The notes under the pieces were generated by a model. The model worked only from the letters and a program-made list of their open reading frames with translations. It had not been told where the DNA came from and searched no databases. Positions 44,779 to 59,909 of a stretch of 64,000 nt of DNA are shown here, one piece after another (the first letter of the stretch is position 1; each line of letters starts with the position of its first letter). The translations under genes and the position numbers were made by a program. Origin of the DNA: a virus (taxonomy: Duplodnaviria; Caudoviricetes); the IMG/VR virus record IMGVR_UViG_3300021255_000122, positions 1 through 64,000 of that record; one strand, given 5' to 3'.

Positions 44779-46286
44779 TTAGAATAAAAGACATTAATTG
44801 GTATCTTAGTGAACCTACAAGGCTTTTGCAAATGAAGCCTTTTACACGCGGTGGCAAGATGAATAGTCATGGGTTTGAAACGCAAGAAATCCTTAATAAC
44901 ACGACACTTGAAACTGGATTTGCGAATCTTACCCTTAGACCTATATCGCAAGATACGTACATTACGGAATACAAGCCCGACTTGCATCACATTATTTATA
45001 ATAAGACAATTCCGCATATTAAAGTGGTGTTGAATGGTGTTGAAATTCCAACGGGCGACATGGAATTAACGCAAACCGCAGCGTTTCAAAAACTTATCCA
45101 TTCCGCGCATGTACGTAGCCTAACATCAAATCCGTTGGAATTTAACCTTTGCAACATTGACAAAGAACAAGGTGGTATTAACCAATTTGAATACGCAAAG
45201 AGTGAATGGAATTGGCGCAACATGGATTGGTGGTTAGGACGTGCTATCAACACTTGCAAGCAACTCGGCAATTGCGGATTGTTGTTTAGTTTCGACCCAC
45301 AAGAAGAAAAATATTCCGTTTCAAGCTATAGCTACGAAGATGGCTATCAAGTCATTCCTAACTATGATGAATACGGAATTGAAATAGCGCGAACACTTTG
45401 CTATCAAATAGACAACACAACCGTAATCGACACATACGACAACAAGTACCATTATCGTTGTACGAAAGGGTCAAACGGTTGGTCTATCCAAAAAGAAAAA
45501 CACGGGTTTAGTAGATGCCCGTTGTTAACGAAACGTGGAAAGGTTGCATGGGAATATGCGGAAAGTTCCATTGAAATATGGGAACTTATGGCAAACATTC
45601 AAGCAATTGCACTTAAACGTTTTGGAACTTTTGCTTTGGCGTTTTGGGGAGAAATGGACAAGGAAACATTTTCCCGTGATTCATCAACGATGATTATCAA
45701 TCTTTCAAGCGATACTACGCAAGGAAAGCAAGATGTTAAGGTGTTGGATTTTCCCGAACCGCAAACAATGGACGGTTTCTTGAAAACCGTAGAGGAAAAA
45801 ATTTCGTTGTTTAGTTCAACTTCGTTTATTACGCCAAAAGATATTACCGCAACAAATAGTGGTGGTAACGGAATTGCGCTTGCGATGTCTAACGACTATG
45901 CGCTTGCAACGCAGAGCGCGCTTGATTGGCGTAAATTCGTAAACGACATGGTGTATCTACACCAAGAAGGACTTGACCTTGAAAACAACGCTACCGAGAA
46001 ATACGGAAAGCTACGCATTAGCGCAAAGATAGTTCCTTGGTCACTTGAAACAAACAATACAAAGATTACGAACTTGCAAATGGAATCCAAGTGGTTGTCA
46101 ATGAAAACTATCATTGAAAAGTCACCCGATGCCGCGCCAAACGAGGTTGAGCGTATTATTGAAGAACGTGGCTCACTTATACCGCAAGATGGTATTAGTG
46201 ATGCAGATAGCGAAAAAGCCGCAAGAATATCCAAGAACAATAGTAACGAAATAGTTGATAATCAAGCCCAAACGGGACTTTCATAA
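44775..46286 (+). CDS. portal protein (SPP1 gp6-like)
   Basis: 503 aa directly after terL; NSGGNGIALAM..A pattern. Confidence 0.82.
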   Translation: MIRIKDINWYLSEPTRLLQMKPFTRGGKMNSHGFETQEILNNTTLETGFANLTLRPISQDTYITEYKPDLHHIIYNKTIPHIKVVLNGVEIPTGDMELTQTAAFQKLIHSAHVRSLTSNPLEFNLCNIDKEQGGINQFEYAKSEWNWRNMDWWLGRAINTCKQLGNCGLLFSFDPQEEKYSVSSYSYEDGYQVIPNYDEYGIEIARTLCYQIDNTTVIDTYDNKYHYRCTKGSNGWSIQKEKHGFSRCPLLTKRGKVAWEYAESSIEIWELMANIQAIALKRFGTFALAFWGEMDKETFSRDSSTMIINLSSDTTQGKQDVKVLDFPEPQTMDGFLKTVEEKISLFSSTSFITPKDITATNSGGNGIALAMSNDYALATQSALDWRKFVNDMVYLHQEGLDLENNATEKYGKLRISAKIVPWSLETNNTKITNLQMESKWLSMKTIIEKSPDAAPNEVERIIEERGSLIPQDGISDADSEKAARISKNNSNEIVDNQAQTGLS

Positions 46287-46672
46287 TGGAGGATTACAAT
46301 ATGGGATGGATGGAATTTGTATTAGGTATAGCAACGTTGGTGTTAGGCACGGGATGGTTGTTTACATACCGTGCTTTCAAGAAACGAAACGAAGGCGAAG
46401 CCATGCAAGCCGAAGCAGGTGGATGGGAAGGCCAACAACGCGTATATCAAAACACTATTGCCGATTTGGAGAAATCATGCGAGTTTATCAGAAACGATAG
46501 GGATTTACTTAGAAAGGAAAACGAAGAATTGCGTCGTGAAAACAAAGAACTTAGAGATAAGATTAACCATCTTGAAAGCGTTATTCTTGATATTAGAAAG
46601 GATATGGCAAGGCAAGGTAGGCGCATTGAATCTTTGACTAACAAAACAAAAAAAGGAAACCAATCAACGTAG
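46286..46672 (+). CDS. putative holin (N-terminal TM plus coiled coil)
   Basis: FVLGIATLVLGTGWLFTY; directly before the endolysin. Confidence 0.55.
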   Translation: MEDYNMGWMEFVLGIATLVLGTGWLFTYRAFKKRNEGEAMQAEAGGWEGQQRVYQNTIADLEKSCEFIRNDRDLLRKENEELRRENKELRDKINHLESVILDIRKDMARQGRRIESLTNKTKKGNQST

Positions 46673-46687
46673 TAAGGAGGACAAATA

Positions 46688-47305
46688 ATGCAAACACTAA
46701 GAATAGGTAGCCGAGGAAACGACGTAAAGATTCTACAACGCGCTTTGAATCTTTACGACGATGGAATATTTGGAAATTTGACACTTGAACGGGTAAAGGA
46801 ATACCAAAAAAGCGTAGGACTTTACCCCGATGGAATAGTTGGCGATAAAACTTGGGAAAAGTTGCTTAACGGCAAATCGCAAATATCCGTATCAAAACGA
46901 AAGATTACGGAGATAATTGTGCATTGTACGGCGACGCAAGAAGGAAAACACTTTACCGTTTCCGATATAACACGTTGGCACAAGCAACGTGGGTTTTCAA
47001 CGATAGGTTATCATTACGTTATATATCTTGATGGCACAAGACATTTAGGACGTAACGTAAACATTAGTGGCGCACATTGTGAAAACCACAATTCGCATTC
47101 AATAGGCGTTTGTTACGTTGGTGGCCTTGCAAGCGATGGAAAGACACCAAAGGATACACGCACACAAGCGCAAAAAACGGCCTTGCTTGCGTTATTACGT
47201 GAATTACGTAGGGTTTACCCGATGGCAAGAATTTATGGCCATAGGGATTTCTCTTCCAAGGCTTGCCCATCGTTTGATGCCAAACGTGAATATTCAACAA
47301 TCTAA
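46688..47305 (+). CDS. endolysin: peptidoglycan-binding domain plus N-acetylmuramoyl-L-alanine amidase (T7 lysozyme-like)
   Basis: LRIGSRG.DV..LQ...DGIVG..TW; IIVHCTAT, IGYHYVI, GAHC, GHRD, KACPSFD. Confidence 0.93.
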   Translation: MQTLRIGSRGNDVKILQRALNLYDDGIFGNLTLERVKEYQKSVGLYPDGIVGDKTWEKLLNGKSQISVSKRKITEIIVHCTATQEGKHFTVSDITRWHKQRGFSTIGYHYVIYLDGTRHLGRNVNISGAHCENHNSHSIGVCYVGGLASDGKTPKDTRTQAQKTALLALLRELRRVYPMARIYGHRDFSSKACPSFDAKREYSTI

Positions 47306-47317
47306 AACACGAATATT

Positions 47318-47788
47318 ATGATAGACAAAGAAAAAATAGAATATGCAAGAATATGGCATGAACAACAAAAACAAAACGTTGGTTGTGGAACGCCTTTGTA
47401 TGTTTGCATCATTATTGCCGTTATCCTTTTCTTTTCGTCTTGCGCAACACGTACCGTAATAGAATATCGTGACCACGACGTTAATCACTACATAACGAAA
47501 GTAGAAAAAGATACGGTAACACAAAACACAAGGGATAGCATCTATTTTGAAGTAATACAAAAAGGCGATACGGTGTTTGCTACTAAGTATAAGGAAAAAT
47601 ATATCTATTTAGACAAAATCCAAATAAGATGCGATACATGTTGGCGCGATAGTGTTGTAACGGAATACAAGGAAAACGTAAGGGAAATAAAAAAAATACC
47701 TAAAATCTATAAGGTTTCACTTGTGTTTTCAATCCTTTGTGTTATATTTGCAATATTAAAATTTGTAAGATGGCTAAAGAAACGTTAG
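47318..47788 (+). CDS. putative unimolecular spanin (lipoprotein with C-terminal TM)
   Basis: Hydrophobic run ending FSSC; beta-rich middle; C-terminal TM and basic tail. Confidence 0.6.
   Translation: MIDKEKIEYARIWHEQQKQNVGCGTPLYVCIIIAVILFFSSCATRTVIEYRDHDVNHYITKVEKDTVTQNTRDSIYFEVIQKGDTVFATKYKEKYIYLDKIQIRCDTCWRDSVVTEYKENVREIKKIPKIYKVSLVFSILCVIFAILKFVRWLKKR
47743..47750 (+). promoter_or_regulatory. -7 element TATATTTG ahead of the large tail gene
   Basis: 20 nt upstream of the ATG at 47770. Confidence 0.55.
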
Positions 47789-50700
47789 GAAGAAATATCA
47801 CGTTCCCGATATACAACGAGAACGGCACATCGTTCCACAACCTTGTTTTAAAAAGAGCCGTTGTGGATAGTGTTGTTATGTCGCTTGGTGACAAGATAAC
47901 TGGTGATGTATATTACAAAGACAACGCCCTCGATGTAACGATGCGTGAATATATCTTGTACAAGAAAAATCCAGAGGATGAAAACGAAGATGCGGTAAAA
48001 TACGTTCTTGTTAGCCCACCTACGATAGTACGCGAAGGTATGGTTTCGGACAATTCCGAATTAAAAGGAATGACAAAATACTCGTTCGTTTTCTATCATC
48101 CTATGTATGTGTTGAACAACATTCCTTTTAGCGATGTTGCCGTTACAAGCGAACAAGAAAGGTATTTATCGCAAAACAAGGAGTTTTCTTGGATTGGCTA
48201 CCCAGACGATTATATTGCAAAGATAAGCAAGAATTTACAGCAAACACAATGGACGGTAGAGAAAAGTTCACGTTTCCCAACCGATAAAGATAGTGTTCTT
48301 AGCGGTGTTTTGTCTTTTAGCAACAATACTATTGCCGATGCATTAAAAACATGGTACGACACATGGGAAATACCTTATGTGATTGACGTTGTAAAAAGCG
48401 GCGAACAAGGGTATTCCAACGGAAAGCGTTTCAAGATTGTATTCGGCTTACCGTCAACGGAAATCTACCAACAAAACGGTAGTACGCCTTTTGTGTTTGA
48501 AATGGGAAAGGGTGTTGGTTTAAAGAACAATTCCCGAACGCCACGTAACAATAAAATCGTTACACGAATAAGTGGTTACGGTAGTGAAAGCAATATCCCT
48601 TATGGCTATCCGCAAATTATTTGGACGGGCGACCAATCATGGGATTACACGATAAACAACGCAAGCGGAATGCAAACAATTACCGTTGGCGGTAGGACAA
48701 TACAAGCGATGTCTTACCCAATTTATGACGGTATTGTTGGTGGCCAAAAAGTAAGGCTTATCAAGCATCCGTTTACGCGCACACACCTTATGCCAACGGT
48801 TTATTCGGACACGGTAAACAAAAAGGTGAACCCACGTAATCCGAACTATAATCCTAACGGCGAAATCATTGATTATTACGATGCAATTGCAACGCAAGAA
48901 TATCAATACCCTAACGAAATAGACCAAAATTCACCGTCTTACGAAATACACGAATTTGACGTTAAGCCAGAAATGAGTGATGGTGGCGAGGATATTGAAA
49001 TTGTAAACGCCGTACCACTTAATGCCGACCTAACACCTGCCGATTCTTGGGATGATTCCATAGACGATGATGGTAATTTCCTACAAAGTTATTTTAGGTT
49101 GGATTTGCCTATATTTCCGTTTGATTTGTATGCGTGTGCATCCATAACCGAGGAAATGAGCGTTAATATGCGTTCGGGTGCTTGTATCGGGTGTACATTC
49201 AATGTACAAGTTGATTGGGAAGAATATAAGCGTAATTTCTACAAGGAAGATGGTACGTTTGACCCTGTAATCCATACGGAAAGCGGTGACGGACACGTAA
49301 GAGACGGTAGTAGATTCCCCGATAGTAGCCAAACGGCAATAAGCCTTATTGTTCAAAAAGACAACGAAACATTTGGTACAATCATGCCAAATGTGTACCA
49401 ACAACCACATAGCGGTGATGCTTTTGTCGTGTTGGGAATATCGTTGCCCGTTGAATATATCACAAACGCCGAGGAAACACTTGACGATGAAATGAAATCG
49501 TATATGCTTGAAAACAACGTGCATTATTACGATTATCCTTTGAAATTCGACGAGTATTTCTTGGCTACACATACAAATATCCTAACTCAACTAAAGCCAA
49601 ATGCCATTGTTCATTTCGCCTTTGGTGACATAGAACAACCGCTTGAATTGTATGTTAAGCAACTTACCGTAAAATACGGATATAATGTATTACCGCAATA
49701 CGACATTACGCTAACGGACAACGTAGAGGTGGTTCTTAACCAAATAGGACAAGTTGCCGATGATGTGGAAAGGCTATCTTCGATAATCTCCATGATGCGT
49801 GAAAACTATTCGCGTAACGTATGGGGTGAGATAGCAAAGAAACTATCAAAGGTTAGCGATGATACGGCAAAGGGTAAGATTACGTTCGAAAAGGGAGCGG
49901 AATTTGGAACATACAATAGTGGTGCACTTGGAAGCGGAGGTGCTATCAACATAGACCAAAACGGCAATTCTAATGCCGAATTTGATTTCCTTACGATACG
50001 AAAAGCCGCAACGTTTAGGACAATAACGATTCTTGAATTGAAACACGTTGGCGGTGAACTTGGATTAACCGCTGGCGCAATGAAAGTTTCGGCGGTAGAG
50101 GAAACCGAAACCGCATACCGTTGTTACTTCGATACAAGCGATGGCACAAAGCAAGTGTATCAAGAATTTGTTGTAGGCGACCAAGCACGTTGCCAACAAT
50201 TCCGACTTGCACAAAATGCAAGCGGAATGACAACTACGCATTACTATTGGCGACTTGTAACGGGTGTTGGCGAAAACTACGTTGATTTGTCCAAGACGGA
50301 TGCCGATACGGGTAGTGGCATTCCACAAGCAGGTGACGAGGTAATCCAATTAGGTTATCGCAACAACGACCACCCAGAACGCCAATCAGCAATCATTCTT
50401 TCGGCGGTTGAAACACAAGCACCTTCCATAAGATATTACCAAGGGATTAATAGCTACAACTTAACGAACACTATTGTCAAGGAAGAATATTACGACCCAG
50501 ACCCTAACGATAAAAAATTTCATTCAAACACTTACGGTGAAAGTTATGTAGGAGACAAGAACGAAACTACCTACATGAAATACACGCAAAACGGTGGTGT
50601 TGAAATCAAGGGTAAGGTGGAAATGTCAAGTGCAAGCACTCTTGATGGAAGTAACTTGGGAAGTGTGTTAACCGCAATTAATGGAACGGCAACGACAGCA

Positions 50701-52614
50701 AACACCAATGCGCAAAATGCACAAACTGCTGCTGGCAATGCCCAGAGTGCTGCTGATGCTGCACAATCTACGGCTAACACGGCTAACACAAACGCCACAA
50801 ATGCACAAACCGCCGCAAGCAATGCGCAATCAACCGCAGATGCGGCAAATACCGCCGCAAGTAATGCTGCCACAGCCGCACAAACGGCACAAACCGCCGC
50901 AAATAACGCGCAAACTGCTGCTGATAATGCTCAAACATCAGCCGACCAAGCAAACACAACGGCAAACGCAACCGCAACTACCGTAGCCAATCTTTCTACG
51001 GGAAATCAAAATCTTTTGCGTAATAGCGGATTTACGGGGGATTATCTACCTGAAGATTCCGCAACAAGTGTCGAAGTGAATGATGGTACTTTCTTGTTTT
51101 CCAACCCGTTTGACCATTGGACAACGACAAATGCAACTGCCATTTCTTCGGTAGAAAGTGTTACTGGTATGGCTGTGGTATTAACAAACGGCTCTTTGCA
51201 GCAAACGCTTGAAACGCCTTTGATTGCAAGCGGAAACTACATATTTTCGTTTAAAGCAAAAGGAACGTCGATAAGTTTCACTATTGGTTCTTATTCCTAT
51301 ACGCAAGCACTAACAAATACGGCTACAAGATACACGTTCAAGTTCATTGCGCAAAGTGCTTCAACTGCTTTTGCGATAACGTCATCAACGTGTACCGTTA
51401 TGGAGCTTCAACTTGTACAAGGAACTGTACCAAATACCGATTGGATAAACAACCCAAATGACAACGACAAAGCACTTGCATATTTCCAAAACCTTACATA
51501 TCTCACGAATGCTATTGTAAACGGAAGTACAAGTATTCTTGGCGGTTTGATTCTTTCCAACCAGATAAGAGTTGGCAACTACCGTGACGGTTCAATGGTA
51601 CAAGAGACTGGAGGTATAGCAAGTCAATCAAGTTATGAGTTTGAAGAAAGCGGTGGCACAAGTGGATTGTACACGGGTTCAAATAGTCCTTTCCTTTGGG
51701 GAGGAGGAACTATGGAAAAAGCATTCTATACTATTGCTAAATACGATGAGAATCCTAATTACGAGCCATCCGCAAGCGAACTTGCAAATTTGATGGCAAA
51801 ATTCGTTGTGACACACGGTGGTAGGGCAATTCTTAATGATATTATTCTTCGCGGAGTAATATATGCCGTGAGCGGAAAAATAGGTGGGTTTGATATTGGT
51901 GTGGACAAATTAAAAAACACCAATTATGCGGCTTCAATTAACATATCTAACGATGCTACAAACCCAACACAAAACACAATTATAGGTGGCGAAGCCGTAG
52001 ATACTTTTACGAACAAGAAATGTGCAATGGTTGCAAGGAATGTTACGCCTTCACAGACACACAACACGGCCTTGTTCTTGGTGGCTCAGGGAGCAAATTA
52101 CAACTATGCTTTTCACGGAGAAGGCAATGGTGTACTTAATGGTGTAATGTATGGTTACAAAACCGCATTGTTGTCATTAAAGACACAAGAAACACAAATA
52201 AACCTAACGCAAGGTTCAACTTTTCTTGTGACAGAAAGAACTGGCACGGATGATGATAAGAGATTTATATTGATGCCAAAACTTAGTCAAGTACAACAAA
52301 CACTTGGACTACCACAGACGTTTTCACAAGAAAATTCAACACCGTTTTCAATAGAAATAAACATAATGTATTATTCGCCCGTAACCACAAAAATAAGACT
52401 TATTTTTAGAGGATATACTGGCTACACGGATAGTCAATACCCATATTTGCATTATGACGATGATAATATTCATACGGGTGATAGCGAATCGAGTATTGAA
52501 ATGACGAGAGGTGATATAGTCAAATTGTTGCTCGTTTATTACCCCAACAAAGTTGCATCCTCTGGAGAACTTGCTCCCTATCAAGCAATCAAGATGGTTC
52601 ATAATCATTCATAA
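47770..52614 (+). CDS. large tail protein (baseplate hub/central fibre)
   Basis: 1614 aa; NNKIVTRISGYGSESNIP, AEFDFLTIRKAATF motifs typical of Bacteroidales phage tail proteins; Ala/Asn/Thr heptad stalk. Confidence 0.8.
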   Translation: MAKETLGRNITFPIYNENGTSFHNLVLKRAVVDSVVMSLGDKITGDVYYKDNALDVTMREYILYKKNPEDENEDAVKYVLVSPPTIVREGMVSDNSELKGMTKYSFVFYHPMYVLNNIPFSDVAVTSEQERYLSQNKEFSWIGYPDDYIAKISKNLQQTQWTVEKSSRFPTDKDSVLSGVLSFSNNTIADALKTWYDTWEIPYVIDVVKSGEQGYSNGKRFKIVFGLPSTEIYQQNGSTPFVFEMGKGVGLKNNSRTPRNNKIVTRISGYGSESNIPYGYPQIIWTGDQSWDYTINNASGMQTITVGGRTIQAMSYPIYDGIVGGQKVRLIKHPFTRTHLMPTVYSDTVNKKVNPRNPNYNPNGEIIDYYDAIATQEYQYPNEIDQNSPSYEIHEFDVKPEMSDGGEDIEIVNAVPLNADLTPADSWDDSIDDDGNFLQSYFRLDLPIFPFDLYACASITEEMSVNMRSGACIGCTFNVQVDWEEYKRNFYKEDGTFDPVIHTESGDGHVRDGSRFPDSSQTAISLIVQKDNETFGTIMPNVYQQPHSGDAFVVLGISLPVEYITNAEETLDDEMKSYMLENNVHYYDYPLKFDEYFLATHTNILTQLKPNAIVHFAFGDIEQPLELYVKQLTVKYGYNVLPQYDITLTDNVEVVLNQIGQVADDVERLSSIISMMRENYSRNVWGEIAKKLSKVSDDTAKGKITFEKGAEFGTYNSGALGSGGAINIDQNGNSNAEFDFLTIRKAATFRTITILELKHVGGELGLTAGAMKVSAVEETETAYRCYFDTSDGTKQVYQEFVVGDQARCQQFRLAQNASGMTTTHYYWRLVTGVGENYVDLSKTDADTGSGIPQAGDEVIQLGYRNNDHPERQSAIILSAVETQAPSIRYYQGINSYNLTNTIVKEEYYDPDPNDKKFHSNTYGESYVGDKNETTYMKYTQNGGVEIKGKVEMSSASTLDGSNLGSVLTAINGTATTANTNAQNAQTAAGNAQSAADAAQSTANTANTNATNAQTAASNAQSTADAANTAASNAATAAQTAQTAANNAQTAADNAQTSADQANTTANATATTVANLSTGNQNLLRNSGFTGDYLPEDSATSVEVNDGTFLFSNPFDHWTTTNATAISSVESVTGMAVVLTNGSLQQTLETPLIASGNYIFSFKAKGTSISFTIGSYSYTQALTNTATRYTFKFIAQSASTAFAITSSTCTVMELQLVQGTVPNTDWINNPNDNDKALAYFQNLTYLTNAIVNGSTSILGGLILSNQIRVGNYRDGSMVQETGGIASQSSYEFEESGGTSGLYTGSNSPFLWGGGTMEKAFYTIAKYDENPNYEPSASELANLMAKFVVTHGGRAILNDIILRGVIYAVSGKIGGFDIGVDKLKNTNYAASINISNDATNPTQNTIIGGEAVDTFTNKKCAMVARNVTPSQTHNTALFLVAQGANYNYAFHGEGNGVLNGVMYGYKTALLSLKTQETQINLTQGSTFLVTERTGTDDDKRFILMPKLSQVQQTLGLPQTFSQENSTPFSIEINIMYYSPVTTKIRLIFRGYTGYTDSQYPYLHYDDDNIHTGDSESSIEMTRGDIVKLLLVYYPNKVASSGELAPYQAIKMVHNHS
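50690..50990 (+). repeat. in-frame 7-residue (21-bp) degenerate repeats, A/N/Q/T coiled-coil stalk
   Basis: NAQTAAG NAQSAAD AAQSTAN TANTNAT NAQTAAS NAQSTAD ... Confidence 0.75.
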
Positions 52615-52632
52615 AAACAACAATAAAGATAT

Positions 52633-55600
52633 ATGGAAAACTTAAATAATGTACCAAGTAGCGGAACTTTCGGTGGTTCTATAAACCAAGTCAATCAGAA
52701 CTTCGGTTTGGTTAAAGTGGCGATAGACGGATTAGAAGGCAGGACAATCCGTTCAAAGGGGCTGTTTCCCACACAAGCTGCGTTAGTAGCCGCATATCCA
52801 TCCCCAATAGTCGGCGATTATGCTTACGTCGGTAGCGGACTACCTGCCGAAATCTATGATTGTGTAACCGCTGGTACATGGCATGACACGGGGCAAACTG
52901 GAGGTAGCGAGACGATAAACCTTGGCGACTATTCAACGACAACACAAATGAACGCTGCCATTGATAGCGGACTACAAGGGCAAGTTGGTTATGCGGTTTG
53001 TAGTACCGCTGGTGGAACGGCGAGAAAAGATGTCGTTGTTAGTGGTTTCAAGTTACTTGCGAATGGCGGTGCATTGCACATAAAGATGACAACGGCCAAC
53101 ACTAACGCAAGTGCAACGATGAACATAAGTCCAACGTCAACCGTTATAGCAGCAAACACAAAACCGCTTTTCTACAACGGTGCACAAGCAAGTTCCGAAA
53201 ACACATGGGGCGCAAATGAAATCATTTCCGTTTATTATGACGGAACTAATTATCAAGCAACGAATAGCCAAGGAGGGGGTGGCAAGGCCGAGAGAATAAA
53301 GTATGACAATTCACAAAGTGGGCTTGCTGCTGAGAATGTTCAGGGGGCTTTGGATGAGTTAGGGCAGAGGGCTGTTATCATTAATAGTGATAATATAATT
53401 GGTAATTATACAGATAAGCTCGGCTATATAACTCCAGATTTAAAGTGGCTTTCTAACAACAAAAAGAGGAAACATAGGGCAATCCCAGTTGCAGGTGCAG
53501 ATTATGTGAAGATTACGGCAAAGAGTGACCACAGGTCATCAATAACATTCGCAACATCTAATTATGTGACACCTACTACTTCCAGTTCAGGAAGTAATGT
53601 TCCTGTTTGTGCTGGTGCAGAATTATATTATATTGATACAGCAGAAACGAAGATATTTCGTATTCCTTCTGATTGTGCTTACGTTCTTGTTAATATCACT
53701 TCCGATAATTCCACTTTTCTTACACCGACTTCTATATATTTTGGTGTTGATATTAATAAGGTTGTAACAACGAAAATCACTAATAAGATTCCGTTTGCTA
53801 CCTTTGAGCACCTTGCACTTAGAATAACTAATAACCAAGAAATCGCAATTCAATCAAGGAATGTAACTGATTATATAGATATAAGTACCATGTCAAATAT
53901 AATCTATACTCGCGCACATTCTGATGGTGCAGGAGGAAATTATGGTATGTTATTCTACGATGAAGATAAAGAGCCTATAGCTGATTCTGGCTACAGGGAG
54001 TTTACAAATTATCCTAAAGATGGATATTCGATAGAAAAGATTCCTGTTCCTGAAGGCGCTGTATATGCAAGGTTTACCTATTGGAATAATGAAAAATTTG
54101 GCAAGTTCTTCGTTGCTGATGGGGATGCAGATGCAGAGGCGATTGCCTTGTGGAAAAGTATCAATAATTCAAGAATGCTATATGGCTATGAGGCTGGTAT
54201 ATATAGGCAAGCTAATGGAACAGAAGATAATGGCCTCCAACTAAATCCTTTGTATGGATTAAGTGTTCCTATTCCTGTATCAAAAGGTGATACTGTATTA
54301 TGGCACTATGGTGATGTAGAAATTAGGACAATGGCAATGGAGATTATTTCTGAAAATAATACTGACCTTGGTTCTTATAAAAACACAGAAGCTAATGAAA
54401 GGTTGTTTACTGATTTTTTTCCTTCCTCTCAGTATAGTAATTTCTTTATAAGAGTAAGTCTACTGATAGCCAATGGCAGCGATAATTATATTGAAGTCAA
54501 TGGCGAAAGGGTATGGACAGCATTTAATGAAAGCCTTGGAAATAAATTCAACAAGATAGATAAGGTGGTGAATCCTTATACGGATTTATCTTTCTACAAT
54601 AAATCTATTAGCACCACTACGGGCGGTGAAGCGAAAACAACCAAAAGACTTTCTACGTCATATATTGTACATAGGGGAAGATATATATTAAGCGTAGCTG
54701 ATGGATACTTAATCCATTCTGTTAATTATTATGATGAAAATAAAACATGGTATAAGGGTATCTTTGCCCCAGCGCAGACAGTCATAACGGAACAGCAAGA
54801 TATTGAAGGTTATATTAAAATAGTTGTTACTAATCAGGACAATACTACAGATATCGCACTTGATGCCCCTATAAACCTGACTTTTAATACATATTCAGGC
54901 GGTAGTTTGGAAGAGTTTGACGATGCTTTGCGTATAGGTACATTCAATAGTTCTTATAACAATACAGATGTAGAGGCGGTTAGAAATAAATACTGCGGAT
55001 TAATCAAGGGTAAGAGCAAGATAGAGAATTTCCTTTTCTTTACAGACCCACATCTTACGCCAAATAGCAGATATGAGGAAATGACGGAAGCCATCAGAGA
55101 TAGATTTATATCTACTCTACAAAAATACTATAATTCATTACCTATGGATTTCTGTATTTGTGGAGGAGATTGGCTCAACTTTAACCATCCTAATAATACG
55201 GACTGTGAATGGTTAGGATATTGTGATGCCTATATGCGTAAGTTGTTTAGGAACTATTATCCAGTGTTTGGAAACCACGATAACAATCCATACACTCCGA
55301 GTAACACGGAAAGTAACTGGTTGAATGCTCTAACCTATCCAACGGTTATGAATCTCATGTTCCGCGAGAATGGAAGAACATACTATTCATTTGAGGGATT
55401 GAACACCAAATTCTATGTAATGAATAGCGGTGTCTCATTCATCAAGGGGATGACAAATAGCACATATTCAAGACTTGTCAGTAACCGATGGGCACAGATT
55501 GAATGGTTAGGCAATGCTCTTCTTCAAGATGATGCAGATAATAGTGTAATTGTAATGCACATTTATTCCAACGCATCTAATCCTGTGAACTGGTTCTCAG

Positions 55601-56151
55601 AAGAAACAGGATATAGAGCATACGGAATCCACGATTTAGGTAAGAATGTGAAATTGTTAGTGACTGCCTACAATAACAGGCAATCAATAACACTAAATGG
55701 CATTACATATAACTTTGCGAATTGCAATGGAAGGGTGATGTTTATTCATTGCGGACATACACACTTTGATTATGTAGACACAACAGGGGAAATTCCAATT
55801 ATTAGTACAACAAACTTAGAAGGTGGACACTTGGTAAATGGAGAAGTTGTGTATGACCTTGTACCAACCTTTGATTGTTGTATGAACGATTTGGACAACT
55901 CCGCTTTGTATATGACAAGAGTCGGTGCTGGAGTAAGCAGAATAGTTAATTACAGTCACAAGGCTGTTTCTGTTGGTGGAAGCATTTCTCTTACTTGTAA
56001 ATTGAGCGGCACTATAACATGGCAGACAAGAAACAGCAATATTGCCACTGTATCTAATGGGACTGTGGCTGGTGTTGCTTCTGGTTGTGTGGGCATTATT
56101 GCCACCAATGAAAACGGTGAGGAAGAATATTCGATTGTTAAAGTTGGGTGA
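52633..56151 (+). CDS. tail fibre/receptor-binding protein with calcineurin-like metallophosphoesterase domain and C-terminal Ig-like (Big_2) domain
   Basis: Fibre N-terminus and YDNSQSGLAAENVQGALDEL linker; FTDPH, GGDW, GNHD, VMH, GHTH; C-terminal TWQTRNSNIATVSNGTV. Confidence 0.8.
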   Translation: MENLNNVPSSGTFGGSINQVNQNFGLVKVAIDGLEGRTIRSKGLFPTQAALVAAYPSPIVGDYAYVGSGLPAEIYDCVTAGTWHDTGQTGGSETINLGDYSTTTQMNAAIDSGLQGQVGYAVCSTAGGTARKDVVVSGFKLLANGGALHIKMTTANTNASATMNISPTSTVIAANTKPLFYNGAQASSENTWGANEIISVYYDGTNYQATNSQGGGGKAERIKYDNSQSGLAAENVQGALDELGQRAVIINSDNIIGNYTDKLGYITPDLKWLSNNKKRKHRAIPVAGADYVKITAKSDHRSSITFATSNYVTPTTSSSGSNVPVCAGAELYYIDTAETKIFRIPSDCAYVLVNITSDNSTFLTPTSIYFGVDINKVVTTKITNKIPFATFEHLALRITNNQEIAIQSRNVTDYIDISTMSNIIYTRAHSDGAGGNYGMLFYDEDKEPIADSGYREFTNYPKDGYSIEKIPVPEGAVYARFTYWNNEKFGKFFVADGDADAEAIALWKSINNSRMLYGYEAGIYRQANGTEDNGLQLNPLYGLSVPIPVSKGDTVLWHYGDVEIRTMAMEIISENNTDLGSYKNTEANERLFTDFFPSSQYSNFFIRVSLLIANGSDNYIEVNGERVWTAFNESLGNKFNKIDKVVNPYTDLSFYNKSISTTTGGEAKTTKRLSTSYIVHRGRYILSVADGYLIHSVNYYDENKTWYKGIFAPAQTVITEQQDIEGYIKIVVTNQDNTTDIALDAPINLTFNTYSGGSLEEFDDALRIGTFNSSYNNTDVEAVRNKYCGLIKGKSKIENFLFFTDPHLTPNSRYEEMTEAIRDRFISTLQKYYNSLPMDFCICGGDWLNFNHPNNTDCEWLGYCDAYMRKLFRNYYPVFGNHDNNPYTPSNTESNWLNALTYPTVMNLMFRENGRTYYSFEGLNTKFYVMNSGVSFIKGMTNSTYSRLVSNRWAQIEWLGNALLQDDADNSVIVMHIYSNASNPVNWFSEETGYRAYGIHDLGKNVKLLVTAYNNRQSITLNGITYNFANCNGRVMFIHCGHTHFDYVDTTGEIPIISTTNLEGGHLVNGEVVYDLVPTFDCCMNDLDNSALYMTRVGAGVSRIVNYSHKAVSVGGSISLTCKLSGTITWQTRNSNIATVSNGTVAGVASGCVGIIATNENGEEEYSIVKVG

Positions 56152-56232: not shown

Positions 56233-56270
56233 AAAAAGCCTTTGTAACTTAATGATTACAAAGGTTTTTT
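56233..56270 (+). terminator. intrinsic terminator after the tail fibre gene
   Basis: aaaaagcctttgtaa/ttacaaaggtttttt. Confidence 0.8.
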
Positions 56271-56322
56271 CTTTTTGTAATGGACTTAAAAAAGTCCAAC
56301 ATTGTTCTTTCTTGTTTTGGGA

Positions 56323-56330
56323 TATCTTTG
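56323..56330 (+). promoter_or_regulatory. -7 element TATCTTTG for the 56.4-58.6 kb cassette
   Basis: Consensus match between the terminator and the first gene. Confidence 0.75.
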
Positions 56331-56391
56331 CACCGTAATCGGTTACACAACGTGAACTTAAATTCAATAACAACAAAACAAGAAAAAAATT

Positions 56392-57372
56392 ATGGCAGCA
56401 GAAATTTATCAACTTCCAGAAGGAAACGGCAATGGTGGCAATGCAACCATTCCTTTCTCTATTCCTATTGGCTTTGGCGGTTATGGGAACGGCGGTATGT
56501 TCGGAAACGGCAACGGCTTTAATTCAATCGCAGACCTTTTCGGCTTGGCAATTATCGCTTCAATGTTCGGTTGGGGCGGCAATGGCTTTGGCGGCGGTTT
56601 CGGCGGTTGGGGCGGCAACGGTGGCGCAGGTTTCATCAGCAATCAGTTGAACAACGATAGCGGACGTGAACTTTTGATGAATGCCATCACGAACCAAGGC
56701 GAAGCATCGAGAACCGCAATACAGACACTTAGCACGATGCTCGGACAGGACTTCAATCTTGTCAACGCGGGCATCCAGTCGGCGCAAAACACCCTTAACC
56801 AAATTGCCAACGCACAAGGAATGTCAACCTTGCAGATGATTAACGCCGTACAATCGGGCGACGCGAACCTTGCAAGCACAATCCAAAAGTGTTGCTGCGA
56901 CCAATCACTTGCAACTTGCCAGCAAACGAACACTTTACAGAATGCGATTAATGGCGTAAACCAAAGCGTTCTTAACAAAGCGGCTTCAGACCAACTTGCA
57001 ATGTGTCAGCAGACCTATGCTTTGACCGATACAATGAACCGCAACTATCTTGCTCTTGACAACAAGATTGACGCGCTTGAATCAAGTCGTAAAGACCGTG
57101 AAATCACAAGCCTTACCGCTCAAGTGGCTAAGTTGGAATCGCAGAACTTCACGGCTGGTATCGTTCAGCAAGCCGTTGCACCACTTAACGCTCAATTGAA
57201 CAATCTTGCAAACGAGGTGGACGATATTAAGTGCAAACTTCCCGAAACTGTAAACGTTCAGTGGCCTAATCTTGTGGCCGTCAATGCAAGCCCCTACGTT
57301 AGTGGTGGTTTCTACGGACAGCCTTGGGGTGGTTTCTATGGCAATGGGTTTGGTAACAACATAACGTTCTAA
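56392..57372 (+). CDS. Gly/Asn/Phe-rich protein with hydrophobic segment, CCC motif and coiled coil (function unknown)
   Basis: GGNGFGGGFGGWGG; IADLFGLAIIASMFGW; KCCCD; LDNKIDALES..KDREITSL. Confidence 0.85.
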   Translation: MAAEIYQLPEGNGNGGNATIPFSIPIGFGGYGNGGMFGNGNGFNSIADLFGLAIIASMFGWGGNGFGGGFGGWGGNGGAGFISNQLNNDSGRELLMNAITNQGEASRTAIQTLSTMLGQDFNLVNAGIQSAQNTLNQIANAQGMSTLQMINAVQSGDANLASTIQKCCCDQSLATCQQTNTLQNAINGVNQSVLNKAASDQLAMCQQTYALTDTMNRNYLALDNKIDALESSRKDREITSLTAQVAKLESQNFTAGIVQQAVAPLNAQLNNLANEVDDIKCKLPETVNVQWPNLVAVNASPYVSGGFYGQPWGGFYGNGFGNNITF

Positions 57373-57398
57373 CAATTAGCGGATAGGAGGTAAAAAGC

Positions 57399-57734
57399 AT
57401 GAGTTGTTTTGGTAATATTACGACAAACGCAGGAGGTATTCCGCTTTTGATTTCAACAACTACAACCGTAGGAACGGAAAGCATTGACATTGCTTTGGGT
57501 TTCCGTCGTATTCAGCCGTTAGGATATTTCACCGTTCGTATTTCGGATGTTATTCCCACGGATGCAACCACAACGTTACCCGTGACTTTGACTTTGAACG
57601 GCACAACACGCGCCCTTACGTTACCTAACGGCACACCCGTAACCGCAGCCGAATTGCTTTCGACGAACGTTATCTTGGTGTTCAACGATAGGTTTAATGG
57701 CACGCTTGCGCTAATGTCAAGAACGGTATTGTAG
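57399..57734 (+). CDS. small Thr-rich all-beta protein (function unknown)
   Basis: ORF in cassette. Confidence 0.8.
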   Translation: MSCFGNITTNAGGIPLLISTTTTVGTESIDIALGFRRIQPLGYFTVRISDVIPTDATTTLPVTLTLNGTTRALTLPNGTPVTAAELLSTNVILVFNDRFNGTLALMSRTVL

Positions 57735-57770
57735 TTTTTAGTGTTTAACAACAAAAAGTAAATAACAATT

Positions 57771-58292
57771 ATGGATTTTTCAAGTTTAGGTAACGGTAAT
57801 CCGTTTTACATTCTTCGTCAAGGAGAAAAGCCGGTATTAGAGGTTGGAACGGTTAAGGCAAAGACACAACCACACGTAAAGTTTCCCACCCAAACGCCTA
57901 ATCTAATGGCAGGTTTGCAAACGCAACAAGTTATTGATATAACCGCTACGATTAACGGAAAGGATGAAACATTTAACGACATTCCCGTAGGTGTGGAAAT
58001 CGCCCAAAAAGGTAATAGCACGTTTAGTGGTAGCCGTGAGGCAATGTTACAAGCGGTGGATAATATGTTGCAAACGTCTAAAAAGGCTTTGGAACAAATT
58101 CCATTGCACAAAAATGTAATTGCCGAATCGGAAAAAATGCTTGAAGTCTTGAATCCACGTTATGCGGAGGAAAAGAAACAGGCACGCACTATTACAGACC
58201 TTGAACGTCGACAGTCAGAGACCGACAAGAAACTTGACACAATCCTTGGAATCTTGAAGAAGTTGGATTCTCCTTCGCCGAACAATGTTTAA
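57771..58292 (+). CDS. hypothetical protein (beta N-terminus, helical C-terminus)
   Basis: ORF in cassette. Confidence 0.8.
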   Translation: MDFSSLGNGNPFYILRQGEKPVLEVGTVKAKTQPHVKFPTQTPNLMAGLQTQQVIDITATINGKDETFNDIPVGVEIAQKGNSTFSGSREAMLQAVDNMLQTSKKALEQIPLHKNVIAESEKMLEVLNPRYAEEKKQARTITDLERRQSETDKKLDTILGILKKLDSPSPNNV

Positions 58293-58313
58293 TCCATATA
58301 AAAACGAAAGAAT

Positions 58314-58550
58314 ATGAGTTACGTAATAATTAATCGGGATGAAGACGACATGATGGGCTTACGTTCACAAATGCGTAGGAACTATCATGGTGGTGAATAT
58401 CGCAACTATGGCGGTTCAAGTGCTATGATGCGCAATGACGGTAGTATGCGTGACCACTATTACAAGATGGGTTATCGGCACGCTATGGAAGATATGGAAG
58501 ATGATGAACAGTATCGCCGCCAGCGTGATAGCCGTGGCCGTTACGTCTAA
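58314..58550 (+). CDS. small low-complexity R/Y/M/D-rich protein ending RRQRDSRGRYV
   Basis: ORF in cassette, followed by a terminator. Confidence 0.75.
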   Translation: MSYVIINRDEDDMMGLRSQMRRNYHGGEYRNYGGSSAMMRNDGSMRDHYYKMGYRHAMEDMEDDEQYRRQRDSRGRYV

Positions 58551-58558
58551 AAAATTAT

Positions 58559-58590
58559 AGGGGGAGGGTGTTTCGCCCTTTCCCTTTTTT
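58559..58590 (+). terminator. intrinsic terminator
   Basis: aggggagggtg-tttc-gccctttccc plus T-run. Confidence 0.75.
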
Positions 58591-58621
58591 CAATAACAAT
58601 AAAATAAAAAGGAAAGGAACA

Positions 58622-59029
58622 ATGATGGAATATTACGTTTATAAAAGTGAGGAAGAAGAAATATACAATAGCAAATACCATTGTCATTTCAACAAAAGAC
58701 TTGCGGAATGGGCAATAGAAAACATGCGCAAGGAAAACCCCACGAACGGAATGCTTGAACCAATCAAGAAAAAAACAATTGAGGAATTTGACGAGTTCTT
58801 GAAAGAAAACAAATTAAGCATTCAAGATGAATCGTATTACGATGCCTACTATCTTTTGCACATGACTTTTGCCGATTATGCAAAATCCTTAGAGGATGAT
58901 AAGCATCGTGCGGCATATATTGAGGAAACCATTTGCGACCCCGATTGTGAACCCACAGCCGTTCTTGCTTGTTTCAAGGCAAAAATGGATTTGATGGGTA
59001 AGCCTATCTTTTGGGAGAAATTTTTCTAA
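58622..59029 (+). CDS. conserved-looking helical hypothetical protein
   Basis: DAYYLLHMTFADY...ICDPD..CFKAKM..PIFWE; start MMEYY. Confidence 0.75.
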   Translation: MMEYYVYKSEEEEIYNSKYHCHFNKRLAEWAIENMRKENPTNGMLEPIKKKTIEEFDEFLKENKLSIQDESYYDAYYLLHMTFADYAKSLEDDKHRAAYIEETICDPDCEPTAVLACFKAKMDLMGKPIFWEKFF

Positions 59030-59040
59030 TATCATGGCCT

Positions 59041-59427
59041 ATGGAAACAACGTATATTGACGTAGATAACAAGTGGGGTATAGTTGTCGTATATGATTAC
59101 GATGTTGATTACGAAGCAAATGACCTTTTGGCTATCATGCGTAGTTTTGGTATGACAAGAAAAAACGCCAATCGTGCGCTAAACATTTTGTCTAACTACA
59201 ACACGGGTATGTCCATTTCGAACGACGATTTGCGTATGAGTGCCATCTTCATAAGCAAGGCAACAAACAATAGCGAGTTTTGGTCAACGGCGATACACGA
59301 ACTAAAACATACCGCTGATGCAATTATAACGTATTACGGTGTGGATTGGGACGGAGAAGATGCTGCATACCTTACTGGCTATCTCACAAAAGAAATGGTG
59401 GAAGAAATTGGAGAACCATGTTATTAA
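59041..59427 (+). CDS. putative zincin-like metallopeptidase
   Basis: AIHELKH (HExxH) with downstream GEDAAYL. Confidence 0.6.
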   Translation: METTYIDVDNKWGIVVVYDYDVDYEANDLLAIMRSFGMTRKNANRALNILSNYNTGMSISNDDLRMSAIFISKATNNSEFWSTAIHELKHTADAIITYYGVDWDGEDAAYLTGYLTKEMVEEIGEPCY

Positions 59428-59447
59428 TCACATAAACAAACAAAAAA

Positions 59448-59819
59448 ATGGAAAAAGAAAAATTAATGGTCGAATACAAGGTTACGCTTGAAAGCCTTGT
59501 CGAGAAAACAAAGTTCGTTTATAGCGAGGAATTTTACAAGTTAGACGAATTTGAAAAACAAAAGTTCACTAAAGACAAGATGGCAACCGAGGGGCATTTA
59601 AGCACTTTGTGTAACTTGCTTTGGGGTGAAAAGGTGCAATTTGGTGGTGGCGTTACCGATATGTTTGCACTTGGTATTATAAGTTCTATGTTTGGGTATA
59701 ATGGGCTTTGGGGTGGCAACACGTCAAGTACCGACTACCTAAAGAAAGCACTTGATGATGAAAAGGAAAAGCAAGATGAGGTTTACGTAGTGCCAACGAA
59801 CGAAAATAAAGCCGTGTAA
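59448..59819 (+). CDS. hypothetical protein
   Basis: ORF; its stop codon lies inside palindrome copy 7. Confidence 0.7.
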   Translation: MEKEKLMVEYKVTLESLVEKTKFVYSEEFYKLDEFEKQKFTKDKMATEGHLSTLCNLLWGEKVQFGGGVTDMFALGIISSMFGYNGLWGGNTSSTDYLKKALDDEKEKQDEVYVVPTNENKAV

Positions 59820-59884
59820 GCGCGTTTTATTTCTTTTGTGGTAACTTGTACGTTAGGGTACATAAAAAGCCGTTACAACGCACG
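59812..59884. repeat. dispersed palindrome, copy 7
   Basis: gtgtaagcgcgtttt...ttgtggtaacttgtac...aaagccgttacaacgcacg. Confidence 0.8.
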
Positions 59885-59909
59885 AAAATAGCGTTAGCGG
59901 CTTTTAATA

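Follow-up and report, generated by a model that had tools for sequence, protein, structure and literature searches.

The DNA analysed here (the window; 64,000 nt) is the first 64 kb of the virus record IMGVR_UViG_3300021255_000122 (Duplodnaviria; Caudoviricetes), which comprises 80,227 bp with direct terminal repeats and is rated as complete by CheckV. The subject of this analysis is an operon in this window. An initial annotation, made by a model from the letters alone, had described at this place a self-contained cassette of four genes with its own promoter, bounded by two terminators. The four co-directional open reading frames (ORFs), g1 to g4, are real. Comparison with related loci revealed, however, a conserved collinear unit of six genes, g1-g2-g3-g4-g5-g6, to which g7 is added in the window (56392-59819; Table 1). 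The boundary first drawn had left out an enzyme, since the zincin g6 belongs to the unit.

Table 1. Genes and transcription signals of the operon and of the region upstream of it (positions in the window; aa, amino acids).
Feature	Position	Strand	Evidence or remark
128-aa protein with N-terminal transmembrane segment and coiled coil	46286-46672	+	weak holin PHROG matches
Endolysin with peptidoglycan-binding and amidase parts	46688-47305	+	
156-aa u-spanin-like protein	47318-47788	+	lipobox FFSSC, C-terminal transmembrane segment; weak NCBIfam spanin2 match, E 0.025
Two large tail-fibre genes	47737-52614 and 52633-56151	+	directly precede the operon region
Terminator-like hairpin closing the tail-fibre operon	56233-56270	+	15-bp stem, T run; -15.3 kcal/mol, z -5.05
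Bacteroidetes-type -7 box TATCTTTG (TAnnTTTG)	56323-56330	+	perfect match, 62 nt before the g1 ATG
g1, 326 aa	56392-57372	+	PHROG 16490, E 3.3e-23
g2, 111 aa, Thr-rich	57399-57734	+	PHROG 31654, E 2e-8
g3, 173 aa, C-terminal half helical with heptads	57771-58292	+	PHROG 28898, E 1.4e-27
g4, 78 aa, Arg/Tyr/Met/Asp-rich	58314-58550	+	motifs conserved across 21 loci
Internal GC-rich hairpin between g4 and g5	58559-58585	+	12-bp stem, T run; -19.2 kcal/mol, z -3.83
g5, 135 aa, acidic, DUF7841	58622-59029	+	Pfam PF25223; PHROG 38431
g6, 128 aa, stand-alone zincin-like metallopeptidase (HELKH and downstream Glu)	59041-59427	+	PHROG 1365
g7, 123 aa, variable last gene with short g1-like hydrophobic motif	59448-59819	+	after g6
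Bidirectional hairpin between the operon and convergent minus-strand genes	59865-59905	.	-18.1 kcal/mol, z -5.0

Related loci, all of which encode a g1 relative, were sampled from IMG/VR (79), prokaryote genome assemblies (18) and GenBank phages (five), and were searched with profiles built in this analysis or, for g4, with phmmer. Gene order and strand were identical throughout the 101 related loci, among which g1 was found in 100, g2 in 89, g3 in 95, g5 in 91 and g6 in 86; most of the misses fall in loci truncated at contig ends. g4 was detected in just 40 loci because it is short and of low complexity, and g7 was matched in 12 loci overall and placed after g6 in about nine of 85. Co-occurrence of the genes, on which the initial annotation had made its proposal depend, is very strong, with about 90 of the 101 loci collinear. 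A DNA search of the cassette against GenBank phages gave no match, and all five PHROGs to which its proteins belong (16490, 31654, 28898, 38431 and 1365) are listed as 'unknown function'.

The analysis of transcription signals confirmed that the unit has its own promoter and that both hairpins noticed at first, upstream of the promoter and after g4, are present and significant. A TAnnTTTG box lies within -250 to +60 of g1 in 79 of 93 loci, 50 of these having it at -80 to -61, against a chance background of 0.13 per 310 nt. Before g2, g3, g5 and g6 the box occurs in only 1-9% of loci, at or below chance. Its enrichment before g1 only indicates that one promoter serves the whole unit; a second promoter before g5 was rejected, as the box is not enriched there. 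Hairpins followed by a T run (folding free energy, dG, of -10 or lower; coding control 1%) were detected upstream of the g1 promoter in 48% of 93 loci, within the g3-g5 interval in 44% of 87 loci and after g6 in 67% of 82 loci. The hairpin after g4, which had been taken for the closing terminator, is probably an internal attenuator and not the end of the unit, because a hairpin recurs in this interval and g5 has no promoter box of its own; the true distal end of the operon is the hairpin at 59865-59905. High expression had also been suggested from the codon bias of g1. This is a weak argument, as the effective number of codons (47.9) is ordinary and only the GC content at third codon positions (GC3; 0.51) resembles that of the putative capsid gene (0.49). 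The promoter is preceded, about 100-170 nt upstream of g1, by a gene of 77-94 aa with a C-terminal helix-turn-helix (HTH) in 42 of 97 loci (for example L014, L016 and L052, with weak matches to Mor, HTH_7 and HTH_23). This gene, which is absent from the window, is a candidate for a dedicated regulator.

At 50% identity the g1 family falls into 492 clusters, and at 90% into over 6000. Its members are stand-alone proteins of about 290-400 aa; a search that looked for longer, fused forms returned none, a result of little evidential weight. The composition of g1 is as first described (G 13%, N 12%), with a single hydrophobic stretch at residues 46-60 and a CCC at 167-169, and the CCC is near-invariant in the family (82 of 91 full-length representatives). 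The family has in common a short N-terminal motif followed by Gly/Asn-rich tracts around the hydrophobic segment, a Q/N/A-rich helical domain that bears the CCC, a conserved KCKxPxTVxVxYP motif and, at the end of most members, an aromatic-Gly tail. The tail module appears to be exchangeable: in a minority of members (P0123, P0125, P0134, P0136, P0180 and P0181) an Ala/Thr-rich tail stands after KCK-P-TV in place of the aromatic-Gly one. The hydrophobic 15-mer has a median Kyte-Doolittle value of 1.79, with 70% of members reaching 1.6, and many homologues carry a strongly apolar segment such as WMWIIFLFFLF or MLIVLFLILILGF. Flanking basic residues are almost absent, and the topology of g1 is therefore not predictable.

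The AlphaFold2 model of g1 (mean predicted local distance difference test, pLDDT, 65) displays a helix at residues 46-58, a group of short helices (80-170) and a single long helix (172-282), which comprises 111 residues, is about 16 nm long and has a pLDDT of about 71-94 per 10-residue block, mostly above 80. Residues 1-45, 59-80 and 300-326 have a pLDDT below 50. Of the long coiled coil claimed for g1, the 111-residue helix stands, whereas a clear heptad pattern is confined to about 108-145 and 247-295. Fold searches gave only generic long-helix matches (Foldseek E above 1; VIA Z of at most 7.8), and the coiled-coil folds matched in this generic way include the reovirus sigma1 tail (Z 7.3). 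Pfam matches of g1 to RHH_4, PTS_IIA and DUF4391 are below cut-off and were dismissed as noise; the PTS_IIA match explains the stray JGI name 'cellobiose PTS IIA'. A match to the PHROG 'head maturation protease' (E 3.5e-4) was treated as coiled-coil noise, since only the helical part of that profile is covered.

Two further forms of g1 were observed. P0184, from a single 3.6-kb contig in ENA, has a DnaJ J-domain and G/F region joined to the helical core of g1 where the hydrophobic N-terminus would otherwise stand. If the fusion is real, it could argue for a cytoplasmic g1 core; as proof of cytoplasmic topology it was set aside, being a single protein and possibly a chimeric assembly through Gly-rich repeats. 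The viruses vir215 (L104:4878-5759) and vir335 (L105:4860-5783; both Caudoviricetes sp.), whose given host is Methanomassiliicoccales, encode g1-like proteins of PHROG 16490 with a strong transmembrane segment and two CCC, without g2-g6, and in both the gene adjoins a 'tail protein' gene. In vir215 a reverse transcriptase gene, possibly of a diversity-generating retroelement, lies near the g1-like gene. If the archaeal host is right, the g1 family would not be tied to an outer membrane.

Among the other products of the operon, g2 is the best conserved (mean column identity 65% over 18 diverse homologues) and usually has a Cys at position 3. Neither a signal peptide nor a transmembrane segment was found in g2-g6, nor a lipobox or signal peptide in g2-g7. 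The composition noted for g4 (R 17%, M 13%, Y 12%, D 12%) and its C-terminus RRQRDSRGRYV were confirmed; an alignment of 22 sequences (g4 of the window and of 21 loci) showed conservation of the motifs MRxQMRR, GYxxGYxHGWED and a C-terminal RRxRDSRGRY/F. g5 matches Pfam DUF7841 (PF25223) with 51.6 bits (cut-off 25.2; E 1.4e-13) and PHROG 38431 with E 4.3e-15. The last gene, g7, contains a hydrophobic motif, VTDMFALGIISSMFG, that resembles IADLFGLAIIASMFG of g1 (residues 46-58). This 13-residue match is 54% identical, with E 0.006 for a single comparison; with a hhalign probability of 14% and no further match, g7 was not established as a paralogue of the g1 N-terminus. The two proteins may share a membrane or a binding partner.

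g6 matches PHROG 1365 (E 2e-6), and its residues H86, E87, H90 and E106 are invariant in 30 homologues. As far as these residues and the model tell, g6 is a small zincin of the gluzincin type with an intact active site. The AlphaFold2 model (pLDDT 95.3) matches a viral BFVD protein named 'PolyVal Metallopeptidase superfamily domain' (E 1.3e-10, template modelling score 0.82, 31% identity) as well as many small unnamed phage proteins, and the g6 homologue of phage C3_41T2LP is likewise named PolyVal Metallopeptidase. With MPTase-PolyVal and SprT-like zincins, g6 shares the invariant HExxH and Glu, and the fold match makes it a candidate member of the PolyVal metallopeptidase type; it differs from MPTase-PolyVal, a family known from work on polyvalent proteins, in that its 128 aa form a protein by themselves instead of one domain within a large polyvalent protein. 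In Pfam, g6 has no match at E 0.1 or better, and no close solved structure was found (Foldseek E of at least 0.13; VIA Z below 5).

Searches of the operon proteins against Pfam, PHROGs, NCBIfam, PADLOC, PDB sequences and PDB folds detected no characterised virion, lysis or defence family. The initial annotation had regarded the function as unassigned and had named a match to a characterised virion or lysis part as what would speak against it; none was obtained. In PADLOC-DB 2.0 nothing matched at E <= 1 except g3 with PtuB (E 0.045, 11 bits), the window's copy of the operon has no match to a tail-fibre or capsid family in Pfam or PHROGs, PDB profile searches with g2, g3, g5 and g6 gave nothing below E 0.06, and in the ESM Atlas g2 and g3 matched only viral clusters without a name, neither protein having a structure there. 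A literature search found no paper naming the gene families, DUF7841, the PHROG numbers, C3_41T2LP or T5.077.

The last of these names belongs to a protein of phage T5 (321 aa, PHROG 8119) whose alignment with the g1 profile reached a hhalign probability of 96% (E 3.5e-9, 112 columns), and which is a remote relative of g1. Like g1, T5.077 has a Gly-rich hydrophobic segment, a Q/N/A-rich helical domain and a CCC, and like g1 it heads a promoter-to-terminator unit with low-complexity and Cys-rich partners. This unit, T5.077-T5.079 (L106:3065-4672), is self-contained and extends from promoter P12 to a bidirectional terminator. It is an early operon whose surroundings are genes for tRNAs, nucleotide metabolism and replication; the T5 genes with a structural annotation lie elsewhere. 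It differs from the operon of the window in its host (E. coli), in having three genes and in lacking a zincin and DUF7841; T5.078 (138 aa, extremely Q-rich) and T5.079 (64 aa, four CC pairs) are not homologous to g2-g6.

The low-complexity sequences might point to a membrane-bound condensate or intracellular scaffold, in which the FG/GN-rich ends of g1 would phase-separate on the membrane together with the Arg/Tyr-rich g4 (in T5, the Q-rich T5.078) and concentrate or shield phage components. The G/N/F/Y/W-rich ends of g1 with their low pLDDT, the 17% R and 12% Y of g4 and the extreme Q content of T5.078 are in line with this. As the idea draws on composition only, and no client or function can be named for it, we consider it very improbable; the sharply conserved motifs of g4 are also more like those of a folded or binding peptide than of a generic sticker.

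The related loci from prokaryote assemblies lie nearly all in metagenome-assembled genomes (MAGs) of rumen and gut Bacteroidales, some of them on contigs of 145-406 kb and therefore in prophages. Only three contigs, of 3-5 kb each, were assigned to other MAGs (Clostridiales, Eubacteriales and Treponema), so that the statement that such clusters also occur in phages of Bacillota is without good support. The GenBank carriers include the crAss-like phages cr273_1, cr109_1 and cr1_1 (Suoliviridae, three subfamilies) and cr116_1 (Steigviridae, Asinivirinae), the carriers among crAss-like phages spanning four genera, and the operon is also present in the cultured Bacteroides uniformis phage C3_41T2LP. 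In the window itself, genes for a large terminase subunit and for a tape-measure protein of 1941 aa identify a long-tailed phage. The carriers include podoviruses (Suoliviridae and Steigviridae), this long-tailed phage and prophage-sized contigs of Bacteroidales MAGs.

A comparison within the subfamily Asinivirinae, to which both crAss001 and cr116_1 belong, revealed the operon only in cr116_1, where it separates the endolysin gene from the annotated gene that immediately precedes the major capsid genes. At the matching place in crAss001, from the endolysin gene to gp31, there are 236 bp, and no match to the g1 profile was found in crAss001 even at E <= 1. Genes upstream of the operon are co-directional in 80 of 97 loci, whereas most of those downstream run towards it (at the second position, 58 of 83). 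The flanking genes are diverse, with 45 to 63 clusters. Together this implies that the operon closes a rightward, late-type block and that the junctions at which it does so are many. The operon is accessory and mobile and has moved as a unit between unrelated gut and rumen Bacteroidales phages.

In several respects this resembles phage morons such as lambda bor and lom and HK97 gene 15, each a promoter-gene-terminator unit complete in itself and embedded in a late operon. The operon likewise comes with a host-type promoter of its own (box in 79 of 93 loci), significant flanking hairpins and a patchy presence in close relatives, lies at the edge of a late block, and occurs in prophages and lytic phages. 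Unlike morons, which have one or two genes, it has six to seven in a fixed order, including an enzyme and, in about 40% of loci, an HTH gene of its own.

Genes for lysis are neighbours of the operon in part of the loci. Each of the four crAss-like genomes examined has holin or endolysin genes next to it. Among 95 loci, 15 have an endolysin gene at a distance of 1.3-2.1 kb upstream, and three have a u-spanin-like gene 0.8-1.6 kb upstream. In the window and about 11 loci the operon follows tail-fibre genes. The plus-strand right part of the window opens with the large terminase gene, followed by a 503-aa ORF that is likely the portal gene, judged by its position. Further along, a canonical-looking lysis cassette was observed at 46286-47788, consisting of a transmembrane/coiled-coil protein, an amidase endolysin and a u-spanin-like lipoprotein. 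A tyrosine integrase was not found in the 80,227-bp record.

The operon was compared with known lysis proteins. With the spanins lambda Rz/Rz1 and T1 gp11, g1 shares a putative membrane segment and a long helical domain with conserved Cys, and the operon often adjoins holin and endolysin genes. It differs from them in having no lipoprotein partner, in that g1 is twice the size of Rz and lacks the flanking charges that define type II topology, and in that it coexists with a u-spanin-like gene in the window and is dispensable in crAss001. g1 is also unlike a holin (326 aa, an uncharged Gly/aromatic C-terminus and no holin match in PHROGs or Pfam). It has neither the lipoprotein signal nor the C-terminal transmembrane segment of a unimolecular spanin, both of which are present in the ORF at 47318-47788, and none of g2-g7 has the lipobox of a two-component spanin partner.

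The top PDB sequence matches of the g1 profile are influenza HA2 and coronavirus S2 HR1 (E 0.006-0.06). These marginal matches account for the label 'spike protein/glycoprotein' that depositors gave to g1 homologues, others being annotated as 'outer capsid protein/viral fiber', and do not prove kinship. Class I fusion subunits such as HA2 and S2 resemble g1 in their Gly-rich apolar peptide, heptad helices and aromatic-rich end; unlike them, g1 has no C-terminal transmembrane anchor (its C-terminus is a Gly/aromatic tail without a hydrophobic stretch), no receptor-binding partner, no enveloped particle and no fold match. g1 might accordingly be imagined as a periplasm-spanning fusogen, whose Gly-rich hydrophobic peptide and aromatic-Gly tail engage two membranes while the helical domain zips, fusing or breaking the outer membrane at lysis. 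The PDB matches, the order of a Gly/Phe-rich apolar peptide, heptads and aromatic tail, the helix of about 16 nm and the lysis genes beside the operon in crAss-like phages would agree with such a role. We nevertheless judge it quite improbable. The HA2 and S2 matches may be compositional, g1 has neither the C-terminal anchor nor a lipoprotein partner, g2-g7 being without lipobox or signal peptide, and the five conserved partners, lacking export signals, would not meet a periplasmic g1 before the holin fires. Moreover, a u-spanin-like gene is already at hand upstream, and crAss001 has no g1 homologue, which means that the operon is not required for lysis in that lineage.

The main rival to the reading that we prefer is an accessory fibre or decoration of the virion, with g1 as a Cys-stapled coiled-coil fibre, g2 and g3 as tip or adaptor, g4 and g5 as assembly factors and g6 as maturation protease. 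It draws on the long helix of g1, the 'outer capsid protein/viral fiber' annotation of homologues, the fold matches that include the sigma1 tail, the capsid-like GC3 of g1, and position, the operon standing after tail-fibre genes in the window and about 11 loci and g1-like genes standing beside 'tail protein' genes in two other viruses. These fold matches are, however, no better than any long helix would give (Z below 8), the window's copy has no tail-fibre or capsid family match, and a strongly hydrophobic segment is odd for a fibre. The same operon is found in podoviruses and long-tailed phages without a shared docking partner, crAss001 has a complete particle although it lacks the operon, and the T5.077 gene belongs to a separate operon, apart from the genes that are annotated as structural in T5. 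We therefore regard a virion fibre as improbable.

We favour, with a probability of roughly 45%, the reading that the operon is a mobile, moron-like unit that makes a putative host-directed, membrane-anchored assembly outside the virion. Podoviruses and long-tailed phages in which the operon works have nothing but the host order in common, and what it depends on is therefore most likely the host, and not some docking site of the particle. Its dispensability in close relatives and the place of T5.077 outside the genes annotated as structural also point to a host-directed product and not to a virion part. The hydrophobic segment of g1 points to the membrane, and the lack of export signals in the five partners suggests assembly on its cytoplasmic side. 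A link to lysis is suggested by the holin and endolysin neighbours in crAss-like genomes and the upstream endolysin gene in 15 of 95 loci. Of the two leading roles within this reading, tuning of lysis or egress is unlikely though reasonable, and the blocking of superinfecting phages a little less likely. The initial annotation had proposed a self-assembling, membrane-linked structure directed at the host. This agrees with the anatomy of the operon; pore, coat, condensate and particle protection, which it had named as forms or purposes, were guesses.

In the proposed mechanism, host RNA polymerase would start at the TAnnTTTG box before g1, and the hairpin after g4 would let part of the transcripts pass, which would give g1-g4 in bulk and g5-g7 in small amounts. 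g1 would insert its short, Gly-flanked hydrophobic segment into the cytoplasmic membrane and oligomerise via the long helical domain, held by metal or disulfide bridges at the CCC cluster. g2, g3 and g4 may bind to the cytoplasmic part of g1, the Arg/Tyr-rich g4 on the aromatic-Gly tails, and the predicted zincin g6, together with g5, may trim or regulate one component. The assembly would then change the host envelope during infection.

Several points weigh against this reading. The hydrophobic segment of g1 in the window is short, contains an Asp and has no flanking basic residues, and could instead be buried in an oligomer. The link to lysis may be positional only: an endolysin gene was detected within 8 kb on either side in no more than 19 of 95 loci, a share roughly to be expected for a 17-kb slice taken at random from a 75-100 kb genome, and the operon typically ends a rightward block, where lysis cassettes and morons both tend to sit. 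The phage of the window already has a complete-looking lysis cassette 9 kb upstream of the operon. Six genes are an elaborate outfit for superinfection exclusion, and bulk expression, to which the capsid-like GC3 of g1 points, fits a virion structure as well.

A further-reaching proposal is that the operon encodes an unrecognised phage machine, a mobile, membrane-anchored assembly with a coiled-coil core at the triple-Cys cluster, fusion-protein-like or condensate-like in nature and trimmed by the mini-zincin, that remodels the Bacteroidales envelope and has the T5.077 operon as a cousin. We put this forward tentatively, as something rather unlikely.

crAss-like phages rank with the most abundant viruses in the human gut. 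The operon spans several of their families as well as rumen phages and prophages, and the g1 family alone exceeds 6000 clusters at 90% identity. Its proteins are labelled 'unknown function' or, misleadingly, 'spike protein/glycoprotein' and 'outer capsid protein/viral fiber'. The Bacteroides uniformis phage C3_41T2LP and T5.077-079 in the E. coli phage T5 offer tractable entry points. As phages with unrelated particles have acquired the operon intact, it must confer a host-specific advantage. This advantage could be lysis control, phage-phage competition or envelope remodelling, processes that are poorly understood in Bacteroidales.

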